The notes: a model not told the origin generated them from the letters alone. A stretch of DNA of 64,000 bases from Thermoplasmatota archaeon (GCA_040751795.1 JBFMHR010000002.1:224001-288000); one strand, 5' to 3'. Counted from the stretch's first letter, positions 14,157 through 58,670 are shown. Numbers and translations: made by a program.

Positions 14157-14355
14157 GTTCCAATCACCGGCCGCAAGGACCGTCCGCCGGCCCGATGCGG
14201 CAGTCCCCTGACCGCATCAGCGACCGAGCCCTCGGGGCATAGTCTGACTGCTACTGGATGGCTGATGCAGATTCCATTACTTAAAGGCTGACGGATGGCG
14301 CCCGGAGCGCTGCCCCGCTGAAAGGTTAAATTCGGGTACCGTGATTGTCGCGGCG

Positions 14356-15273
14356 ATGCCCGAGGTCGTGAGGTTCTCCCCTCCGGACGATGGCCAGCTC
14401 GTCCGCGCCAAGGTGTTCGGGCTGGGGAGCGCGGGGTGCAACATGATCGGCGGCATCCCGTTCCCCAAGGTCGCGGTGTCGACCTCCAGCACCGACCTGG
14501 AGAGGACCGCCAGCGAGCGGAGGGTCCTGATAGGGCAGGACCGCCTGGTCGGCATCTACTCCTCCGACAAGGAGGTGGTGAAGCACCTCCCCTCCGTCGC
14601 GGGGCACGAGGTGGTGGATGTCTTCAACAACACGGACGTCGCCTTCCTGATGTGCGGCCTTGGCGGGGTGAGCGGCTCCCTGGGGGCGATGGTCCTCTCG
14701 GAGGTCGCCCAGGCGAGGAACGCCCTCGACATAGTGCTAGCCGCCACGCCGTTCTCCGCCGAGAGCGCCCGCAGGAGGGACTTCGCCGCGAGGATCCTGG
14801 GCGAGCTGAGGGGCACCTCGACCCTCTGCGTGGACTTCGGCAACGACCAGCTCTCCACCCTCGCCCCCCACATGCCCATGTCCCGCGCGTTCCAGCTCAT
14901 GAACGGCATAATGTCCCGCCCAGTCATCGACCTGTGCGCCGCCGTTCCGAAGGAGGGGCTCCCGCGGCTCAGGAGGGCGATAGGGGACGCGAGCGCCGGC
15001 AGCTTCGGTCTCGGCATGGGCCGCGGGGACGACCGCGTCGAGAGGTGCGTGTCCGAGGCCCTCAGCTCCCCATGGTTCGACTACGACACGTCGCAGGTGC
15101 GCTGCGCCGTCGCAGTGTACTCGTCGCCGGACCCCTGGGACAAGGAGATGGACGCGGTCCTCGCCATGATCGCCGCCAGGGTGCCGTCGGCGTCCATCGT
15201 CTTCGGCTCGTACGCGGACCCCACCCTGGGAGACCGAATCAGGCTGAGCGTGGTCCTCTGCCGCAAGGCCTGA
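14356..15273 (+). CDS. Divergent FtsZ/tubulin-superfamily protein
   Basis: KVFGLGSAGCNM, FLMCGLGGVSGSLG, TPFSAE..RR, GNDQL, GLGMGRG..RVE...EALSSP, IRLSVV; start 14356 (ATG) or 14341 (GTG). Confidence 0.75.
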   Translation: MPEVVRFSPPDDGQLVRAKVFGLGSAGCNMIGGIPFPKVAVSTSSTDLERTASERRVLIGQDRLVGIYSSDKEVVKHLPSVAGHEVVDVFNNTDVAFLMCGLGGVSGSLGAMVLSEVAQARNALDIVLAATPFSAESARRRDFAARILGELRGTSTLCVDFGNDQLSTLAPHMPMSRAFQLMNGIMSRPVIDLCAAVPKEGLPRLRRAIGDASAGSFGLGMGRGDDRVERCVSEALSSPWFDYDTSQVRCAVAVYSSPDPWDKEMDAVLAMIAARVPSASIVFGSYADPTLGDRIRLSVVLCRKA

Positions 15274-15312: not shown

Positions 15313-15816
15313 TCACTCCAGTATGGGGAAGCGCTTGACCAGCGGCTGTTCCGACCACCACTTTCCCAGCCCGAACCATTTTCCCGGCAGGACGGCCGCG
15401 ATGCCAAGGAGGATGATCAGGTAGACTATGTGGTCGTCTATCACCGGGTTGTTCTCGGGCGGCAGCCTGGATGTCCACATCAGCAGCATCAGGAGCGCCC
15501 CTCCGTATCCGGCCAGCTTGTTCGCCACGCCGAGTATCAGGGCGACCCCCAGAAGCAGCAGCGCCGCCATGAAGACCGCGTCGACCGCTGCGTTCCCCGC
15601 GAGCCCTTCGTAGAACCCGCTGAGCGGGCCGCTCGTGGCATAGGACAGGAACCCCGTGGTCGGGGACCCGCCGTTGATCCACGCGCTCTCGGCCTCGGTC
15701 GCATACCCCAGCCCGAAGGCCTTGTCCAGGAACGCCCAGAGGAAGGTCCACCCCAGCGCCAACCGGACGCCAACCCATGCATACTGCTCCTTCGTGAGTC
15801 TCTCCGTGTTCGTCAC
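15313..15816 (-). CDS. DoxX family membrane protein (DoxD-like)
   Basis: RLALGWTFLWAFLDK, WINGGSPTTGFL, NPVIDDHIVY; start uncertain (GTG 15816 or ACG 15807). Confidence 0.85.
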   Translation of the reverse strand: MTNTERLTKEQYAWVGVRLALGWTFLWAFLDKAFGLGYATEAESAWINGGSPTTGFLSYATSGPLSGFYEGLAGNAAVDAVFMAALLLLGVALILGVANKLAGYGGALLMLLMWTSRLPPENNPVIDDHIVYLIILLGIAAVLPGKWFGLGKWWSEQPLVKRFPILE

Positions 15817-15850
15817 CTCCCGTATATAACGGTGTTAATAGTGAAGTCCA

Positions 15851-16021
15851 GGAAGGATATGAACATGGCTCCGAACCCATGCGCCGGGGGTGTCCGCGGT
15901 CACGGAACGGCCCAGGAACGTTTCAACAATGCACCAAAATAGCCTTTTAGCAGCATGTGCAATTGGGGTTCTGCGGGGATCCGGGCGGCGAAAGCCGCCG
16001 AGGGTCACTTCATATCCTTCT
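15851..16021 (+). ncRNA. Candidate ~170-nt structured non-coding RNA (element A)
   Basis: TATATAAC at 15823-15830; perfect 12-bp closing stem 15852-15863/16009-16020; GGCGGC-GAAA-GCCGCC hairpin; further stems with plus-strand G-U pairs; pyrimidine tract at the 3' end. Confidence 0.5.
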
Positions 16022-16045
16022 TTCCACACTGAATGAGCGGCCTAC

Positions 16046-16549
16046 TCAGCCCACGGAGAACCGGTCCCTGCTCGTGACCTCATCGATCGGCCTCGCCTTC
16101 CGCTCGCCCTTCGGCTTGTCGGATGCGTGGCCGAGGGCGAGCATCGCGACGACCGAGAAGTGCTCCGGCACGTCCAGCGCCTTCTTCACCGTGGCCTCGT
16201 CGAAGCTGCCGATCCAGCACGTCCCCAGCCCCTCAGCGGTGGCCTGGGTGACCATGTTCTGGAGGGCGATGGTCACGTCGACCGCGCACCACTCGGGCGA
16301 TTTCTTCTTGTCACCGCACCCGACTATGACCACGGGGCACTCCTTGAGGAATCCCGCCCACCTCCCCCCGGAGAGGGCCTTCCTCCTCTCTGGGTCATGT
16401 ACGACCACGAAGTGCCACGGCTGGCGGTTGTTTGCCGACGGCGCTATCCTCCCCGCCTCCAGGACCCTCGTCAGGGCTTCCTCCGGCACCGGCCTGCCCG
16501 AGTAGCTCCTCACGGACCTCCTGCTCTTGATCGCATCCAAGACTTCCAT
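16046..16549 (-). CDS. Nitroreductase family protein
   Basis: MEVLDAIKSRRSVRSY, APSANNRQPWHF, EGLGTCWIG. Confidence 0.92.
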   Translation of the reverse strand: MEVLDAIKSRRSVRSYSGRPVPEEALTRVLEAGRIAPSANNRQPWHFVVVHDPERRKALSGGRWAGFLKECPVVIVGCGDKKKSPEWCAVDVTIALQNMVTQATAEGLGTCWIGSFDEATVKKALDVPEHFSVVAMLALGHASDKPKGERKARPIDEVTSRDRFSVG

Positions 16550-16707
16550 CGGGACCACTGGGACGGGCATCGAGTGCGGCGTCATGAACCTTGCGCCAGC
16601 GGGTTCGGGGGGAGGAGGGCAAGGGTTATGCCGCCGCATGCGGTTCTGGGTGCGTCGGCGCCCAGGCCTCTCGGAAGGAGTGGCCGCGGCGCGGGTCAGG
16701 GGGAGAG

Positions 16708-17829
16708 ATGATGTCGGGCATCATGAACGGCAAGTCCGTGGGGATCGCATTCTCGATGGGGATCGTGGCGCTTCTCGTGTCGATGGTACCGGCGTCGGTG
16801 ATGGCCACCGCGCTGCCGGCCGAGTACAAGATCGAGGGCGTGCCCCTCTACCAGCAGATCGACGCGAAGGGGTGCGGGCCAGCCGCCCTCCAGATGATGT
16901 TCGACTACTACGGGGAGTTCGTCGACCAGAAGGAGATATACAACGCGGCGAGGGCCGGCGGAACAACCCTCCCTGACATGGCCAGGGCCGCCCAGTTCAG
17001 CGACCTCAGCACAACGGTCGGGGAGCGGTGGCCGGACAACATCGTCACGGGATACACGGCGCGGTCCGTCGGGTACGCGGCCTTCTACTACGCGTCTGAC
17101 GTGGAGTGGATGCAGGAGCTGAAGGGGGTCGTGGCCCAGGGCTACCCCGTCGCGGTCCTGCAGAACTTCTACCCCGACAGCGACGACCCGCACTACCGCG
17201 TGGTCGTTGGCTACGACCAGCTCAGGGAGGTGTTCATCGTCAACGACGGATGGGTCAGGGAGTTCAAGGTCCCGAGCGGGTACGTCGGCTCCACCAACCC
17301 GATGTCCAACCCGGTGTCCTGGGACGACGAGTTCCCGGGGATGGAGATGTCCTTCGCGGACTTCGAGCTCGCCTGGAGGTGCCCGACCGATGTCTGGGGC
17401 ATCGAGGGGCTCAGGTACGGAGCGGTCGTGGTCGTGCCGTGGGAGGTGGAGGTCGTCGCCCCGGCTTCCGCATCACCGGGCGAGGAGGTCACGCTTGATG
17501 TGACCGTGAGGTACCCGTGCCCTGCGCCCTTCGGCGACCCCGCCTACCCGGTCTTCACCGCCTCAGGCGTGGTGGTCCAGTTGGCCGCGTCCGACGGCAG
17601 CGGGAGGCCTTTCGCCGAGGCCAGCGCGGAGCTGGGGACCCTTGCGGCAAGGGGGAGCCTCTCCTGCGCTCTGACCATCGTGCTCCCCTCCGAGGCCGGC
17701 ACCGTCGCGTTCGAAGTCATCGCGTCCGGAATCGTCTCGGGGCACCTGGAGGAGTGGAAGGACTACCCCGCATACGACTACTCGGACAGGATTGGGGCGT
17801 GGGCGTCCTCGGAGACGGAGGTCTCATGA
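16708..17829 (+). CDS. Secreted C39-like cysteine peptidase with C-terminal Ig-like domain
   Basis: Signal peptide; VPLYQQ...GCGPAALQMMFDYYG, HYRVVVGYD, VNDG triad. Confidence 0.8.
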   Translation: MMSGIMNGKSVGIAFSMGIVALLVSMVPASVMATALPAEYKIEGVPLYQQIDAKGCGPAALQMMFDYYGEFVDQKEIYNAARAGGTTLPDMARAAQFSDLSTTVGERWPDNIVTGYTARSVGYAAFYYASDVEWMQELKGVVAQGYPVAVLQNFYPDSDDPHYRVVVGYDQLREVFIVNDGWVREFKVPSGYVGSTNPMSNPVSWDDEFPGMEMSFADFELAWRCPTDVWGIEGLRYGAVVVVPWEVEVVAPASASPGEEVTLDVTVRYPCPAPFGDPAYPVFTASGVVVQLAASDGSGRPFAEASAELGTLAARGSLSCALTIVLPSEAGTVAFEVIASGIVSGHLEEWKDYPAYDYSDRIGAWASSETEVS

Positions 17830-17889: not shown

Positions 17890-18429
17890 ATGGTCCAGTC
17901 CCTGCGGTACGACGTGTTGCGCTCATACGACGATTTCGAGCTGAGGCGCTACCCGCTGACGGTCCTGGCCACGGTCCGCGGGATGGACGACTACGACGCG
18001 TTCAGCATCCTCTTCGCCTACATCTCGGGCTCGAACACGCGGAGGGAGAAGGTCGCCATGACCGCGCCCGTCGTGTCCGCGGAGCCAGGCCCTGAGAAGA
18101 TACCGATGACCGTCCCCGTGGTGTCGGGGGAGAGGTCCTTCTCCTTCGCTCTGCCGGCGTCCCACTCCCCTGGGGAGGTGCCGGAGCCGACGGACCGCCG
18201 CGTCCAGATCGAGGTCCTCCCAGGAAGGGAGGTCGCGGTCAGGAGGTTCCGAGGCCGCACGGGCGAGCGCGCAGTGGCGGAGCGCAGCGAGGCGCTGCTC
18301 GGAGCGGTGAGGCGCTCGGGCCTGTCGCCGAGGGGCGAGCCCTTCCTTATGAGGTACAACCCCCCGTTCACGCCCGGGTTCCTGAGGAGGAACGAGGTGG
18401 CGGTGGAGGTGTCTGTGGCGCAGGGCTAG
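17890..18429 (+). CDS. SOUL heme-binding protein
   Basis: FELRRY, LFAYISGSN, KVAMTAPV, YNPPFTPGFLRRNEV. Confidence 0.9.
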   Translation: MVQSLRYDVLRSYDDFELRRYPLTVLATVRGMDDYDAFSILFAYISGSNTRREKVAMTAPVVSAEPGPEKIPMTVPVVSGERSFSFALPASHSPGEVPEPTDRRVQIEVLPGREVAVRRFRGRTGERAVAERSEALLGAVRRSGLSPRGEPFLMRYNPPFTPGFLRRNEVAVEVSVAQG

Positions 18430-55007: not shown

Positions 55008-57911
55008 TCAGTCTATCCTTCTTAAGGCCTCGGCGGGGGCCAGCCTGGCTGCCCTCCTGGACGGGGGCAGCACCGACAGGATCGTGACGGCGAAGGCGAT
55101 GGCGAAGACCAGGAGGACCTCGCCCCACGGGATGACGAACACCGAGATGTCCGAGAAGCCGCCCCAGTCGAAGAGCCTGTAGGAGAGCAGCAGCCCGAGC
55201 ACCACGCCGAGGACGATGCCGAGGAGGGCGACGAAGGAGGTCTCGAGCAGGAAGGTGCTGAGTATCATGCCCCTCTGGAACCCGATGGCCCGCATCACGC
55301 CTATCTCCTGCCTCCTCTCCGCGATGTTCCTTATGGTGATGATGCCGAGGCCGGATATCCCGACGATGAGGCCGACGCCGAGGAAGACCTCCATGAGCTG
55401 CATGACCGACGAGGACATGGCCATGGCCTCCTCGATGACGTCGTGGACCACTATCCCGTTGAGGCCGAACTCGGCCAGCCCCCTCTCGAGCTCCCCCATC
55501 ACGGCCTCGTCGGCGACCCCGGTGCCGGCGACGGTGTCGATGTAGAGGAGGTTGTCCATGACGCCGGTGGCGTGCGCGTCGACGAACGCCTTGGTCGTGA
55601 ACGCCCCGCCCACGAGTATCTGGTCCATGATCCCCACGACCGTCACGTTCACGCTCGAGCCGGCGGCGGATGTGACAGTGACGACGTCCCCCACGGCGGC
55701 GTACCACGCGCCAGGCTGGACCATGAACATCGACGGGACGACCGACCCGTCGAGTATGGTGAGGCCCGGGTCCTCCAGGACCGCGTTCCACGCCTCCTCG
55801 TCCGAGGCGTACTCCTCGGAGCGCTGGGCCAGCGAGAAGCGCCCCTCCTCCAGGAGCCCGTCGCTGAACCCGACCAGCATCCTGGTGGCGGACTCGTTCG
55901 AACCCTGGACGGACATCGTGACGTAGGCGGTGCTCGCCGTCTCCACCCTCTCTATCGCGTCGACGCCGAGGGCCGCGCCGACGCTCTCGGCCGCCTCCGT
56001 GAGGTTCGCCTCCGGCACCTCCCTGAGGGTGTACCCGATGATCTCGAAGCCGCCGGAGAACTTCTCGGAGAGGGTGTCCACGCTCTCCCTCTGGAACGAC
56101 GCTATCATGGCGATGACTATGACCGTGAACATGATCAGGGCGAAGATGAAGAGGGTGAGCCCCGTCCTGAACTTCTTGTTCATGGGGTAGCTCACGGCGG
56201 TCCTGAACACCGGGAGCAGGTTCCTGCCCCTTCCGAACAGCCTGACGAGGCCGGCCAGCATCAGGTCGCTGTTGAACATCGCGATGAGCACGGCCCCGGT
56301 CACCATCATCACCCCGGATATGATGAACATCTCGAGATTCCCCTCCAGCACGCCGAAGATGTAGGCCTCGATGCCGATGGGGTCGACGATGTAGTATATC
56401 ATCCAGAAGCCGGCGAGTGTGAATGGCACCCGCGGCCTGACGTACCTGACCGCGACCATGGCCGCCCCGCCGGAGGCGAGCGCCATTCCCGACGAGACGC
56501 CTGCGGCCTGCCCGGACGAGCCGCCGCCGTACATCAGGAGGAACCCGAGCGCGAGGGCCGCCAGTCCGGCGGCGAAGTACCTCCTCTCCGACTTCGCCAG
56601 CACCGGCTCGGGGATGTCCCGGATGGCCCTGACTATGTTGAGCCTGCTCACGCGCCACGACGCCGCCACCACAGTGAGCATGGTTATGAGGAAGCCCGCC
56701 GCGGCGGCGAGCGCCAGGCTCGCCCACTCGAAGTGCAGCGTGAACTCGAGGCCGCTGCCGCCCATCACGGCCGAGAACGCGTTGATCATCACGAACGCTA
56801 TGAGGAGGCCGAAGAGGGTCCCTACCGCGGAGGCGGCGAGGGCGTAGACCGCCCCTTCGAACACGAACGACTGGGTGAGGTCGCCCCTCTGCATCCCCAC
56901 CGCCCTGGAGATGCCCATCTCGGGCTTCCTCTCCTCCGCGAGCATGACGAATATGTTGACTATGAGCGCGACCCCCGCGATGATGGTGAAGGAGCTCATC
57001 AGGACGAAGAGCTGGGAGATCATGTCAGAGAGGGACTCGGCCTGCTCGACCCCCGCCCTCTTGACGTCGTCGTAGGTGTACTCCTCCCCGTCGGGGATCT
57101 CGGCCCTGAGCTCGGCTATCGCGGCGTCGGTGACCAGGTACCCGTCCTCCCTGGCGCCCTCGCAGGACACGTCCACGACGTTGACCATCGTCGGCGCGTG
57201 GAAGATGGATCCCTGGGCGTACTCCAGCTCCACGAACAGCATCCCCGCGAACCGCCAGGACCCCATGCCCTCGTCGGCCGCGATCGCCGACACCTCGAGG
57301 ACCAGGGGGGCTGCGTTCTTCGGGTACACGGCGACCGTGTCTCCCACCGCAAGGTCGAGGCTGCCCGCGAGGTCCTCGTTCGCGACGGCCTTTCCGTCGA
57401 CCAGCATGTCGCGGGTTATGGCGCCTCCGTCGGCGCGCTGGAGGCCGTTGACCACGTTGTCGGGGTCATACGCGAACAGGTACGCGGAGGGCTCCGCCTC
57501 GCCGGTGGAGGGGTCCACGACTGTGGAGACCTCCCGTATCGCGGGCGCGACAGCGTCGATGGCCTGGAGCCCGCCGTCCTCCAGCGTGTCTATGAGGCCG
57601 TAGGCGACGCTCTCGTTGAAGAACTGGTATATCCCGGCGTCGTCCTCGAGCGCGACGACGATGTCCACGTCGCCCGTGCTCTCGTAGACGTCGCCCCTGA
57701 TGATGTAGTCCATGGTGTCGCCGACCACGAGGGCCGCGGAGATCATGGCCGTGGCTATGAGCAGTCCGACGATGACTATGGCCGAGTACCTCTTCCTCCT
57801 CCGGATGTTCCTCCCGGCCATCTTGGCGAAGACCCTCCTCCGGACGGCCAGCAGGCCGGTCACGGCGAGGACCATTGCGACGAGGAACGCCAGTTGCACG
57901 AGCGCGCTCAT
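55008..57911 (-). CDS. ABC exporter permease (FtsX/MacB-like, duplicated)
   Basis: ERKPEMGISRAVG and ERRQEIGVMRAIG motifs; large extracellular loops. Confidence 0.9.
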   Translation of the reverse strand: MSALVQLAFLVAMVLAVTGLLAVRRRVFAKMAGRNIRRRKRYSAIVIVGLLIATAMISAALVVGDTMDYIIRGDVYESTGDVDIVVALEDDAGIYQFFNESVAYGLIDTLEDGGLQAIDAVAPAIREVSTVVDPSTGEAEPSAYLFAYDPDNVVNGLQRADGGAITRDMLVDGKAVANEDLAGSLDLAVGDTVAVYPKNAAPLVLEVSAIAADEGMGSWRFAGMLFVELEYAQGSIFHAPTMVNVVDVSCEGAREDGYLVTDAAIAELRAEIPDGEEYTYDDVKRAGVEQAESLSDMISQLFVLMSSFTIIAGVALIVNIFVMLAEERKPEMGISRAVGMQRGDLTQSFVFEGAVYALAASAVGTLFGLLIAFVMINAFSAVMGGSGLEFTLHFEWASLALAAAAGFLITMLTVVAASWRVSRLNIVRAIRDIPEPVLAKSERRYFAAGLAALALGFLLMYGGGSSGQAAGVSSGMALASGGAAMVAVRYVRPRVPFTLAGFWMIYYIVDPIGIEAYIFGVLEGNLEMFIISGVMMVTGAVLIAMFNSDLMLAGLVRLFGRGRNLLPVFRTAVSYPMNKKFRTGLTLFIFALIMFTVIVIAMIASFQRESVDTLSEKFSGGFEIIGYTLREVPEANLTEAAESVGAALGVDAIERVETASTAYVTMSVQGSNESATRMLVGFSDGLLEEGRFSLAQRSEEYASDEEAWNAVLEDPGLTILDGSVVPSMFMVQPGAWYAAVGDVVTVTSAAGSSVNVTVVGIMDQILVGGAFTTKAFVDAHATGVMDNLLYIDTVAGTGVADEAVMGELERGLAEFGLNGIVVHDVIEEAMAMSSSVMQLMEVFLGVGLIVGISGLGIITIRNIAERRQEIGVMRAIGFQRGMILSTFLLETSFVALLGIVLGVVLGLLLSYRLFDWGGFSDISVFVIPWGEVLLVFAIAFAVTILSVLPPSRRAARLAPAEALRRID

Positions 57912-57920
57912 GCGCACACC

Positions 57921-58670
57921 TCAGAAGGGCGCCGGGACGAAGTCCTTCTCGATGACCCCGTCCTTCATCATTATGATCCGGTCGGTCATCCTCCCGATGT
58001 TGTAGTCGTGCGTGACGACTATGAACGTCTGCCGGTTCTCCTTGTTCAGCTTCCTCAGGAGGTCCATTATCTCCTTGGAATACTCGCTGTCCAGGTTGCC
58101 GGTCGGCTCGTCGGCGAAGACGATCTCGGGGGTGTTGACGAGCGAGCGCGCGATGGTGACCCTCTGTTGCTGGCCGCCGGAGAGCTCCGACGGCTTGTGG
58201 TCCTTCCACTCCTCGAGGCCCACCGCCCTGAGGGCGTTCAGGGCCTTCTTCCTGGCCTCGGACGGGGAGGTGCCCGACAGCAGGAGGGGCAGCTCTGCGT
58301 TCTCCGCGGCCGTCAGGACCGGGAGCAGGTTGTAGGCCTGGAATATGAAGCCTATCTTCTCGGCGCGGTAGCGGGTCCTCTCGCGGTCGGTCATGTCCGT
58401 GAGGCGCCTGCCGCGTATGAGGACCTCCCCCTCTGTGATGTCGTCGAGGCCGGAGAGGCAGTTCAGGAGGGTCGTCTTGCCGCAGCCCGACGGCCCCATG
58501 ACGGCGACCATCTCCCCCTCCTTCACGGAGAGGTCTATGCCCCTGAGGGCGTCCACCTTCACCTTGCCGGAGTCGTAGACCTTCCTGAGGTTCCTCGCCT
58601 CCACTATGGAGGCCCCAGTCCCGGCGTCAGATGCCTGCTCCTTCCCCTTCGCAACCTTCTCCTTGGCCAT
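57921..58670 (-). CDS. ABC transporter ATP-binding protein (LolD/MacB-like)
   Basis: [25 protein letters not shown]. Confidence 0.95.

Follow-up and report, generated by a model that had tools for sequence, protein, structure and literature searches.

What occupies the 229-nt gap between two minus-strand ORFs, a doxX-like gene (15313-15816) and a nitroreductase gene (16046-16639), in the genome of a Thermoplasmatota archaeon? The window analysed here, a 64,000-nt stretch of that genome (GCA_040751795.1, JBFMHR010000002.1:224001-288000) from whose first letter all positions are counted, had received a first-pass annotation made from the sequence alone. It placed in this gap a stand-alone, structured and novel RNA of ~170 nt, closed by a 12-bp stem and preceded by a promoter-like box, with a MITE as the alternative. 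Comparison with related genomes retained one half of this proposal, namely a conserved, non-coding, RNA-like element on the plus strand that matches no known family, and did not support the other half, the ~170-nt unit with its 12-bp closing stem. The conserved unit is shorter (15920-16025), and we consider the chance about even that it represents a single-copy functional small non-coding RNA of the plus strand, whose long and short forms are about equally probable on the compared sequences. To our knowledge, very few small RNAs have been described for uncultured Thermoplasmata, and neither Rfam 15 nor a literature search, which was not exhaustive, yielded a description of this element.

Locus, distribution and copy number

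The left neighbour of the element is the ORF of a doxX-like membrane protein (15313-15816, minus strand), whose Pfam DoxX match (E 0.018, 16.1 bits) lies below the 23.6-bit cutoff, and the nitroreductase gene (16046-16639, minus strand; PF00881, E 9.6e-34) is convergent with the element. The synteny of the locus is anchored by a gene for a divergent FtsZ/tubulin-like protein (14341-15273, plus strand; Pfam Tubulin E 3.6e-9, FtsZ_C E 1.8e-9), which is present in 44 of the 46 family genomes. Beyond the nitroreductase gene follow genes for a Peptidase_C39-like secreted protein (16591-17829, plus strand) and a SOUL haem-binding protein (17890-18429, plus strand). Elsewhere in the window ARAGORN found a tRNA-Gln(CTG) (57867-57959, minus strand), which at a length of 93 nt is probably intron-bearing.

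The source genome (G000; 2.05 Mb assembly of 2,050,642 bases, 92.8% complete) was compared with further genomes of the same genus, with the sister genus g3 (G013, G016, G019) and with two other genera, g2 and g4. The alignment of the element comprised up to 16 sequences, i.e. G000 and 15 related ones including the metagenome contigs L068 and L073. A BLAST search returned syntenic homologues from four congeneric genomes, and throughout only the 3' two-thirds aligned; the fifteen related sequences delimit a conserved unit of ~105 nt (15920-16025). One copy was found at the same locus in all 11 genus species genomes in which the locus is assembled, a count that includes G000. With R1, a covariance model built on the 3' piece, exactly one match each was obtained in 10 of the 11 other genus genomes; the exception, G008 (55% complete), is explained by a contig that ends inside the FtsZ-like gene, so that the locus is not assembled there. 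Outside the genus, R1 matched one of the three sister-genus genomes, none of 19 g2 genomes and none of 12 g4 genomes. A second covariance model (R2), applied with filters off to 18 loci downstream of the FtsZ-like gene, matched 3/3 g3 loci and 0/15 g2 loci. When R2 was run class-wide with stricter filters on 151 genomes, G000, three genus members and two marginal matches (G090, E 0.009; G145, E 0.005) were returned, and G013, which the filter-free search detects, was missed. The two marginal matches were rejected as chance, since their alignment to the model is confined to the AT-rich 5' half and omits 37 model positions, the hairpin among them.

An exact hairpin pattern occurred in 49 stretches of genome contigs, four of them from Thermoplasmata archaeon (L025, L039, L043, L047); the other 45, judged by their titles to stem from unrelated and mostly GC-rich taxa, were treated as chance. 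A pattern scan of metagenomes gave seven stretches, of which L068 is the sole new close variant of G000. L071, L072 and L074, which are mutually identical, represent the G002 type, and L069 and L073 represent the G001 and G003 types, respectively; L070 was dismissed as a chance match. Within G000 the 229 nt are single copy, the other 15 matches being 14-26 nt long with E values of at least 0.22, and the composite motif of the element occurs once in the genome. As judged from these searches, the distribution of the element is narrow and comprises a single genus of uncultured Thermoplasmata together with the sister genus.

The element lies on the plus strand in every mapped context, and three upstream arrangements were found. 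The upstream neighbour is an AAT/C45 gene (plus strand) in six genomes (G002, G004, G005, G006, G010, G011), the FtsZ-like gene (plus strand) directly in G007, G009 and the sister-genus genomes G019, G016 and G013, and doxX (minus strand) with its promoter region in G000, L068, G003, L073 and G001. Where the FtsZ-like gene adjoins, the element follows 8-30 nt past its stop codon, the gap in G007 being 8 nt. The downstream neighbour is the nitroreductase gene (minus strand) in 11 of the 13 related contexts mapped and likewise in G000; Dph5 (minus strand) takes this place in G019, and neither of the two is found in G011. That the element was kept through three different upstream arrangements argues for a function of its own, and on the sequences compared it is retained independently of the neighbouring genes. 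As to the AAT/C45-family gene itself (PF03417), it encodes a 524-aa signal-peptide protein and is the immediate upstream neighbour in six genomes of the genus (L017, 1728-3302, minus strand; loci L081-L085); its absence from the lines G000/G003, G001 and G007/G009 looks as if it had been lost repeatedly.

Structure and sequence of the conserved core

The 3' half of the conserved unit is a three-tier hairpin (15975-16008, plus strand), derived from folding and alignment, which reads GGGG, AUCC, G, GGCGGC-GAAA-GCCGCC, GA, GGGU, CAC. Its base is formed by GGGG with CYYC, its lower stem by AUCC with GGGU (one U-G wobble), and on top stands a variable apical stem-loop. The flanks are near-invariant, with GGGGA(A)UCC on the GGGGAAUCC side and with the CGAGGGUC side opposite. 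The same three-tier shape was obtained for 11 of the 12 genus sequences folded, the exception being G010, with z-scores of -1.4 to -4.4 across the twelve. The wobble pairs had been read as G-U on the plus strand; as a strand call this holds for the hairpin part, which folded alone is more stable on the plus strand in 13/13 cases, and does not extend to the whole element, since inclusion of the 5' half removes the strand bias and leaves the plus strand more stable in only 7/13.

The GGCGGC-GAAA-GCCGCC hairpin reported before is indeed present in G000 (15984-15999), but its GNRA loop is not a conserved feature: GAAA occurs in only 6/16 sequences, and elsewhere the loop reads GAAU, UAAU(A), GAAGA (four sequences) or GCCA. 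Four sequences carry a G-C to C-G swap in the apical stem. The three g3 sequences lack the apical stem altogether and have a linker of 2-4 nt in its place, with other hairpins following.

The hairpin is followed by a pyrimidine-rich tail, TTCATATCCTTCTTTCC (16009-16025, plus strand), as had been described. Relatives have CCYC and a U4-6 tract here, and in G000 the tail doubles as the 3' arm of the 12-bp repeat. A run of at least four T within 30 nt past GAGGG is found in 11/16 sequences, G000 and G002 not among them; the G000 tail offers only UUU (16021-16023), and a simple hairpin-plus-T scan of the G000 copy found no terminator-like site.

In the alignment, which was fitted to the model, 87.1% of the cells of 15 tested pairs can pair versus 80.6% in shuffles (0/500 reach this value), the covariation score is 0.136 versus 0.052 in shuffles (0/500) and at most 0.027 in slid controls, and the covariation is thin, with double changes in 2/15 pairs, perhaps from two to three events.

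The 5' half of the core (15920-15974, plus strand; GTTTCAAC..TGCACCA.AA..CTTTTAG..GTGCAAT..) was recovered with the covariance models from 3/3 sister-genus loci and, within the genus, from 10 of the 11 other genomes. It keeps its primary sequence, with the blocks GTTT.WA.., TG(C/A)ACCA.AA, a TTYTA-like block and RTKCWAT. The A-rich stretch (15914-15955) that had been described as apparently unpaired is the part best conserved in sequence. RNAalifold predicted no consensus pairs on a plain MAFFT alignment of 15 sequences. One candidate helix, H1 (15930-15961, plus strand), would pair UGCAC (15930-15934) with GUGCA (15957-15961) and enclose the conserved ACCA.AA/TTYTA loop. Its middle pair is C-G in 8/14 sequences and A-U in 5/14, with one gap (G011); since the sister genus likewise has C-G in G016 and A-U in G013, the pattern points to at least two switches across two genera. 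With only ~3 reliable pairs, H1 could equally be two DNA operator half-sites. Just past H1, G000 has an extra T at 15963-15964 (CAATTGGGG) that is absent in all close variants and other genus members and reflects either a true indel or a fault of the assembly.

For the search for promoters a matrix was built from the upstream regions of the 34 tRNA genes of G000 only (consensus TGAAAAGGTTTATATA), and the spacing was calibrated on the genome, where the distance from the matrix/TATA end to the start codon peaks at 22-26 nt. The block AAAATAGCCTTTTAGC (15936-15951, plus strand) within the 5' half scores 6.3. The TTYTA-like block lies 21-25 nt from the invariant GGGG in the 12 of 16 sequences in which a regular expression detected it; set against the genomic spacing of 22-26 nt, this predicts a start at 15974-15977. 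With the same G000-derived matrix the homologous block scores at least 5 in 6/14 sequences. In G010 a BRE/TATA match (AAACCCTTTATAA, score 7.2) lies upstream and is placed for a start at the 5' edge of the conserved block. On the AT-richer relatives the matrix gave many matches on both strands and was set aside as uninformative for them. From sequence and spacing, the 5' half would be either the 5' body of the RNA or the promoter of the element itself.

Proposed function of the element

Our best reading of the comparison is that the conserved unit would be transcribed into a trans-acting RNA of ~45-110 nt with a regulatory or protein-binding role. The three-tier hairpin would be its stable 3' body, with base and lower stem fixed in sequence, the apex free and a U-tract in most species. 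In the long form, 15920-15974 would be the single-stranded 5' part of an RNA of ~105-110 nt, derived either from an upstream promoter or from the 3' end of an upstream plus-strand mRNA; if the start lies upstream of GTTT, the RNA in G007, G009 and g3 could only be the 3'-terminal part of the mRNA of the FtsZ-like gene. In the short form, the same stretch would be the element's own BRE/TATA promoter, from which a hairpin RNA of ~45-50 nt would start at the invariant GGGG (15975). A private internal promoter of this kind would account for the survival of the element as one unit in all contexts.

The short form can be taken one step further, to a self-contained mini-gene made up of a private promoter, a hairpin RNA of ~45 nt from GGGG (15975) and a U-tract, which would have survived at least three neighbourhood rearrangements and may go back to the promoter and leader sequence of the saccharopine-dehydrogenase-like gene that g2 has at this position. 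On the present comparison we regard this as a tentative extension with a rather small probability. If true, a small RNA would here have arisen de novo from an orphaned leader.

The element, which is defined by comparison alone, can be given clear borders and a strand, and its hairpin combines fixed flanks with a free apex. If transcribed, it would be a compact test case for how archaeal small RNAs obtain their starts (private promoter versus 3'-UTR processing) and their ends (a hairpin beside a U-tract). As its reach is narrow, at two genera, we consider the finding useful, not surprising.

Alternative readings of the conserved core

The core could also be a cis element only, namely the conserved 3' end (a terminator with a stabilising hairpin) of whatever plus-strand transcript arrives, with no role in trans; it would then shield the convergent nitroreductase or Dph5 gene from read-through. 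The position agrees with this, the element being always located between a plus-strand gene or promoter and a convergent minus-strand gene and, in G007, G009 and the sister genus, directly past the FtsZ-like stop codon (8-30 nt); furthermore, the hairpin base abuts a U4-6 tract in 11/16 sequences. However, archaeal termination as described in PMC8716108 needs U-tracts and not hairpins, tracts of 4-7 U being sufficient without a preceding hairpin, so that a hairpin fixed in sequence suggests recognition by a protein or RNA partner, beyond termination. Neither ~55 nt of upstream sequence nor invariant stem flanks are expected to be kept by a terminator, and here they are kept across genomes whose neighbouring proteins are only 61-67% identical. 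G000 and G002 lack a U4 tract and yet retain the element. We judge a purely cis-acting role to be fairly unlikely.

A somewhat smaller probability is given to a module that works at the DNA level, i.e. an orphan or regulated promoter with operator half-sites, of which a short transcript would be a by-product and which may be left from a gene once located behind the FtsZ-like gene. The 5' half is conserved in sequence and not in structure, its BRE/TATA-like block stands at a fixed spacing, and the TGxAC / RTyCA inverted repeat changes in step. In addition, g2 has a saccharopine-dehydrogenase-like gene (PF03435, PF16653) at the same position and on the same strand, starting 90-155 nt past the FtsZ-like gene, a resemblance of the region upstream of this gene to the element is visible by eye, and a local match of 21/25 exists between G013 and the leader of this g2 gene. 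On the other hand, nhmmer comparisons of the g2 upstream region with the element, run in both directions, revealed no homology (best E 5.3 and 4.2, in other places), and pairwise local alignments gave a mean z of 0.27 with 3/99 above z 3. The single occurrence of the composite motif in the genome shows that it is not a regulon site, and the plus-strand wobble bias of the hairpin (13/13) as well as the G-C to C-G swap point to RNA. That the element is the orphaned promoter and leader of the g2 gene is a guess from sequence. The best saccharopine-dehydrogenase-like homologue of G000 is found elsewhere on the same contig, with 50% identity. Within g2 (loci L100-L112), the upstream region of the gene is itself conserved (..CTATCTAC/CTAATAAT.., ~22 nt, GAGGGCGAAA..).

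The 5' region and the proposed ~170-nt form

Returning to the RNA proposed first, its working unit in G000 would reach from about 15851 to 16022, would be transcribed from the TATATAAC box and would be closed by a stem of 12-14 bp. The features on which it was built are present: the box at 15823-15830 and the inverted repeat, in which GAAGGATATGAA (15852-15863) and TTCATATCCTTC (16009-16020) are exact reverse complements. RNAfold of 15845-16030 extended the closing stem to 14 pairs and gave -73.7 kcal/mol for the plus strand (z -2.92, 0/200 shuffles as good) and -68.6 kcal/mol for the minus strand (z -1.79, 12/200 shuffles as good). The inner helices listed before were recovered only partly in the MFE fold. 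The distance from TATATAA to the stem fits the spacing of 22-26 nt. In L068 the stem, perfect in G000, still has 10/12 pairs; between the two sequences two pairs have both partners changed (one from A-U to G-C, the other from A-U to U-A), and in L068 two further pairs read G-U instead of G-C, which pair on the plus strand only. The L068-type letters at 15853/15854 recur in contigs from three DNA runs.

Several findings weigh against this unit. The 5' arm (15850-15863, plus strand) finds its partner only in G000 and L068; in G003, L073 and G001 the stem fails to form and the 3' arm is not conserved, and 10 of the 15 related sequences lack the 5' part. As a plus-strand promoter the TATATAAC box does not hold up, its matrix score being 3.9-4.5 on the plus strand versus 9.4 on the minus strand. 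The 5' arm also overlaps the best-placed minus-strand TATA candidate of the doxX-like gene. Since a perfect inverted repeat can arise by one template-switch step, as we infer, the double changes need not reflect selection on an RNA. Together with the G-U pairs they give some support for plus-strand pairing, in that lineage only, and the ~170-nt form with its 12-14 bp stem, if made at all, would be an add-on of the G000/L068 lineage. As the working unit in G000 it appears doubtful, and we assign it a low probability.

The 5' third (15850-15919) is lineage-specific and overlaps the promoter region of the doxX-like gene, for which the minus-strand bases of the 5' arm (TTCATATCC) are the best-placed TATA candidate. 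The corresponding minus-strand matrix match, GAGCCATGTTCATATC (15871 to 15856, score 5.9), predicts a start at ~15833-15830, upstream of an SD-like GGAGGTG, and is correctly placed for a doxX-like mRNA. Farther towards the doxX-like gene lies a quasi-palindromic AT-rich box, TATATAACGGTGTTAATA (15823-15840, minus strand), the strongest minus-strand BRE/TATA match of the region, whose core AACGGTGTTAA is invariant in the six sequences in which doxX adjoins the element. The match itself, TTAACACCGTTATATA (15838 to 15823, minus strand; score 9.4), is the site of the TATATAAC box and predicts a start at ~15800-15797, inside the doxX-like ORF; the TATATAACGGTGTTAATA box may be an operator or a second promoter.

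Between the 5' arm and the core lies a spacer (15864-15919, no strand assigned) that is lineage-specific, alignable only to the closest relatives and, in the sequences that have it, 45-95 nt long. Its place in G002 is taken by ~1.9 kb with the plus-strand gene of the 524-aa AAT/C45-family protein (PF03417), which parts the two pieces: the 5' piece carries the AACGGTGTTAA box and GGGACATATGAA..TCTCCGAA, and the 3' piece spans AATGCACCAAAAT to GGGTCAC. G007 has the 3' piece only, directly past the FtsZ-like gene.

A separate observation concerns a 78-nt patch (16013-16091) in which G000 and the L068-type variant are oddly diverged at near-equal length; elsewhere the two are ~95% alike. Affected are the 3' arm of the stem and the final ~15 codons of the nitroreductase gene. 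The L068-type variant is also present in the DNA runs X1-X3.

Coding potential and mobility

A small protein of ~30-40 aa (MHQN...RRGS) could start from an ATG at 15929, and the ATG-started frame is open in 9/14 aligned sequences with several variable sites on third positions. This frame is, however, broken by 1-nt length changes in G000, G009 and G011, contains an in-frame stop in G009 and has no conserved stop position, and the ATG becomes TTG or CTG in four sequences. Moreover, the invariant GGGAATCC is read as GNP versus GES, in different frames, in the G003 and G005 groups. The frame differences, the indels and the stop place the conservation at the nucleotide level and exclude coding, which leaves the small protein a very improbable reading. 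On the compared sequences the element is thus single-copy, syntenic, non-coding and under purifying selection.

A MITE or other mobile remnant, for which the 12-bp terminal inverted repeat of G000 might speak, is next to impossible, since one copy exists in the 2.05-Mb genome (a refutation for G000 at 92.8% completeness) and one syntenic copy in each related genome, the repeat is not conserved (absent in G003, L073 and G001), and the flanks ..AGTCCAG (left) and TTTCCAC.. (right) are not direct repeats, so that no target-site duplication is present.

Comparison with known systems

The statement that the RNA fits no recognised tRNA, 5S, SRP, RNase P or C/D signature was borne out: Rfam 15, with its H/ACA, riboswitch and other families, gave no match at gathering score in the whole window, none with E of 10 or below in 15700-16150 and none at gathering score in six related loci. 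ARAGORN found no tRNA at the element, and a C box (RUGAUGA), searched by regular expression as the test for a C/D sRNA, was present in 0/16 sequences. With a MITE the element shares that in G000 it is a short, AT-poorer island with a terminal inverted repeat; unlike a MITE it is single copy and syntenic, has no target-site duplication, and its inverted repeat is lineage-specific. The element is outside the Rfam 15 families and the C/D-box, GNRA-motif and MITE classes.

The archaeal U-tract terminators of the aCPSF1/FttA system (PMC8716108, PMC7515710) are resembled in the U4-6 3' end in 11/16 sequences and by the location between convergent genes. Such terminators work without a hairpin upstream and show no sequence conservation; in contrast, the element keeps its hairpin and ~55 nt upstream of it, and the G000 and G002 copies are without a U4 tract.

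Like a bacterial Rho-independent terminator, the element has an interrupted GC-rich stem of 12-14 pairs whose base stands 1-2 nt from the U-tract; unlike it, the host is archaeal and the G000 copy fails the hairpin-plus-T scan. The definition of a hairpin-plus-U terminator is therefore only partly matched.

Intergenic regulatory small RNAs of archaea and bacteria consist of a body or seed followed by a 3' hairpin and a U tail. The element resembles them in its size (~45-110 nt), its own strand in an intergenic gap, its genus-level range and its order of parts, in which a stable GC-rich hairpin and a U-tract come after a stretch that is conserved yet unstructured. It differs from them in the fixed sequence of the hairpin flanks, an unusual trait for a simple 3' stem, and in being known from its sequence alone. 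By this analogy the nearest counterpart of the element appears to be an intergenic small RNA that ends in a 3' hairpin and a U tail.
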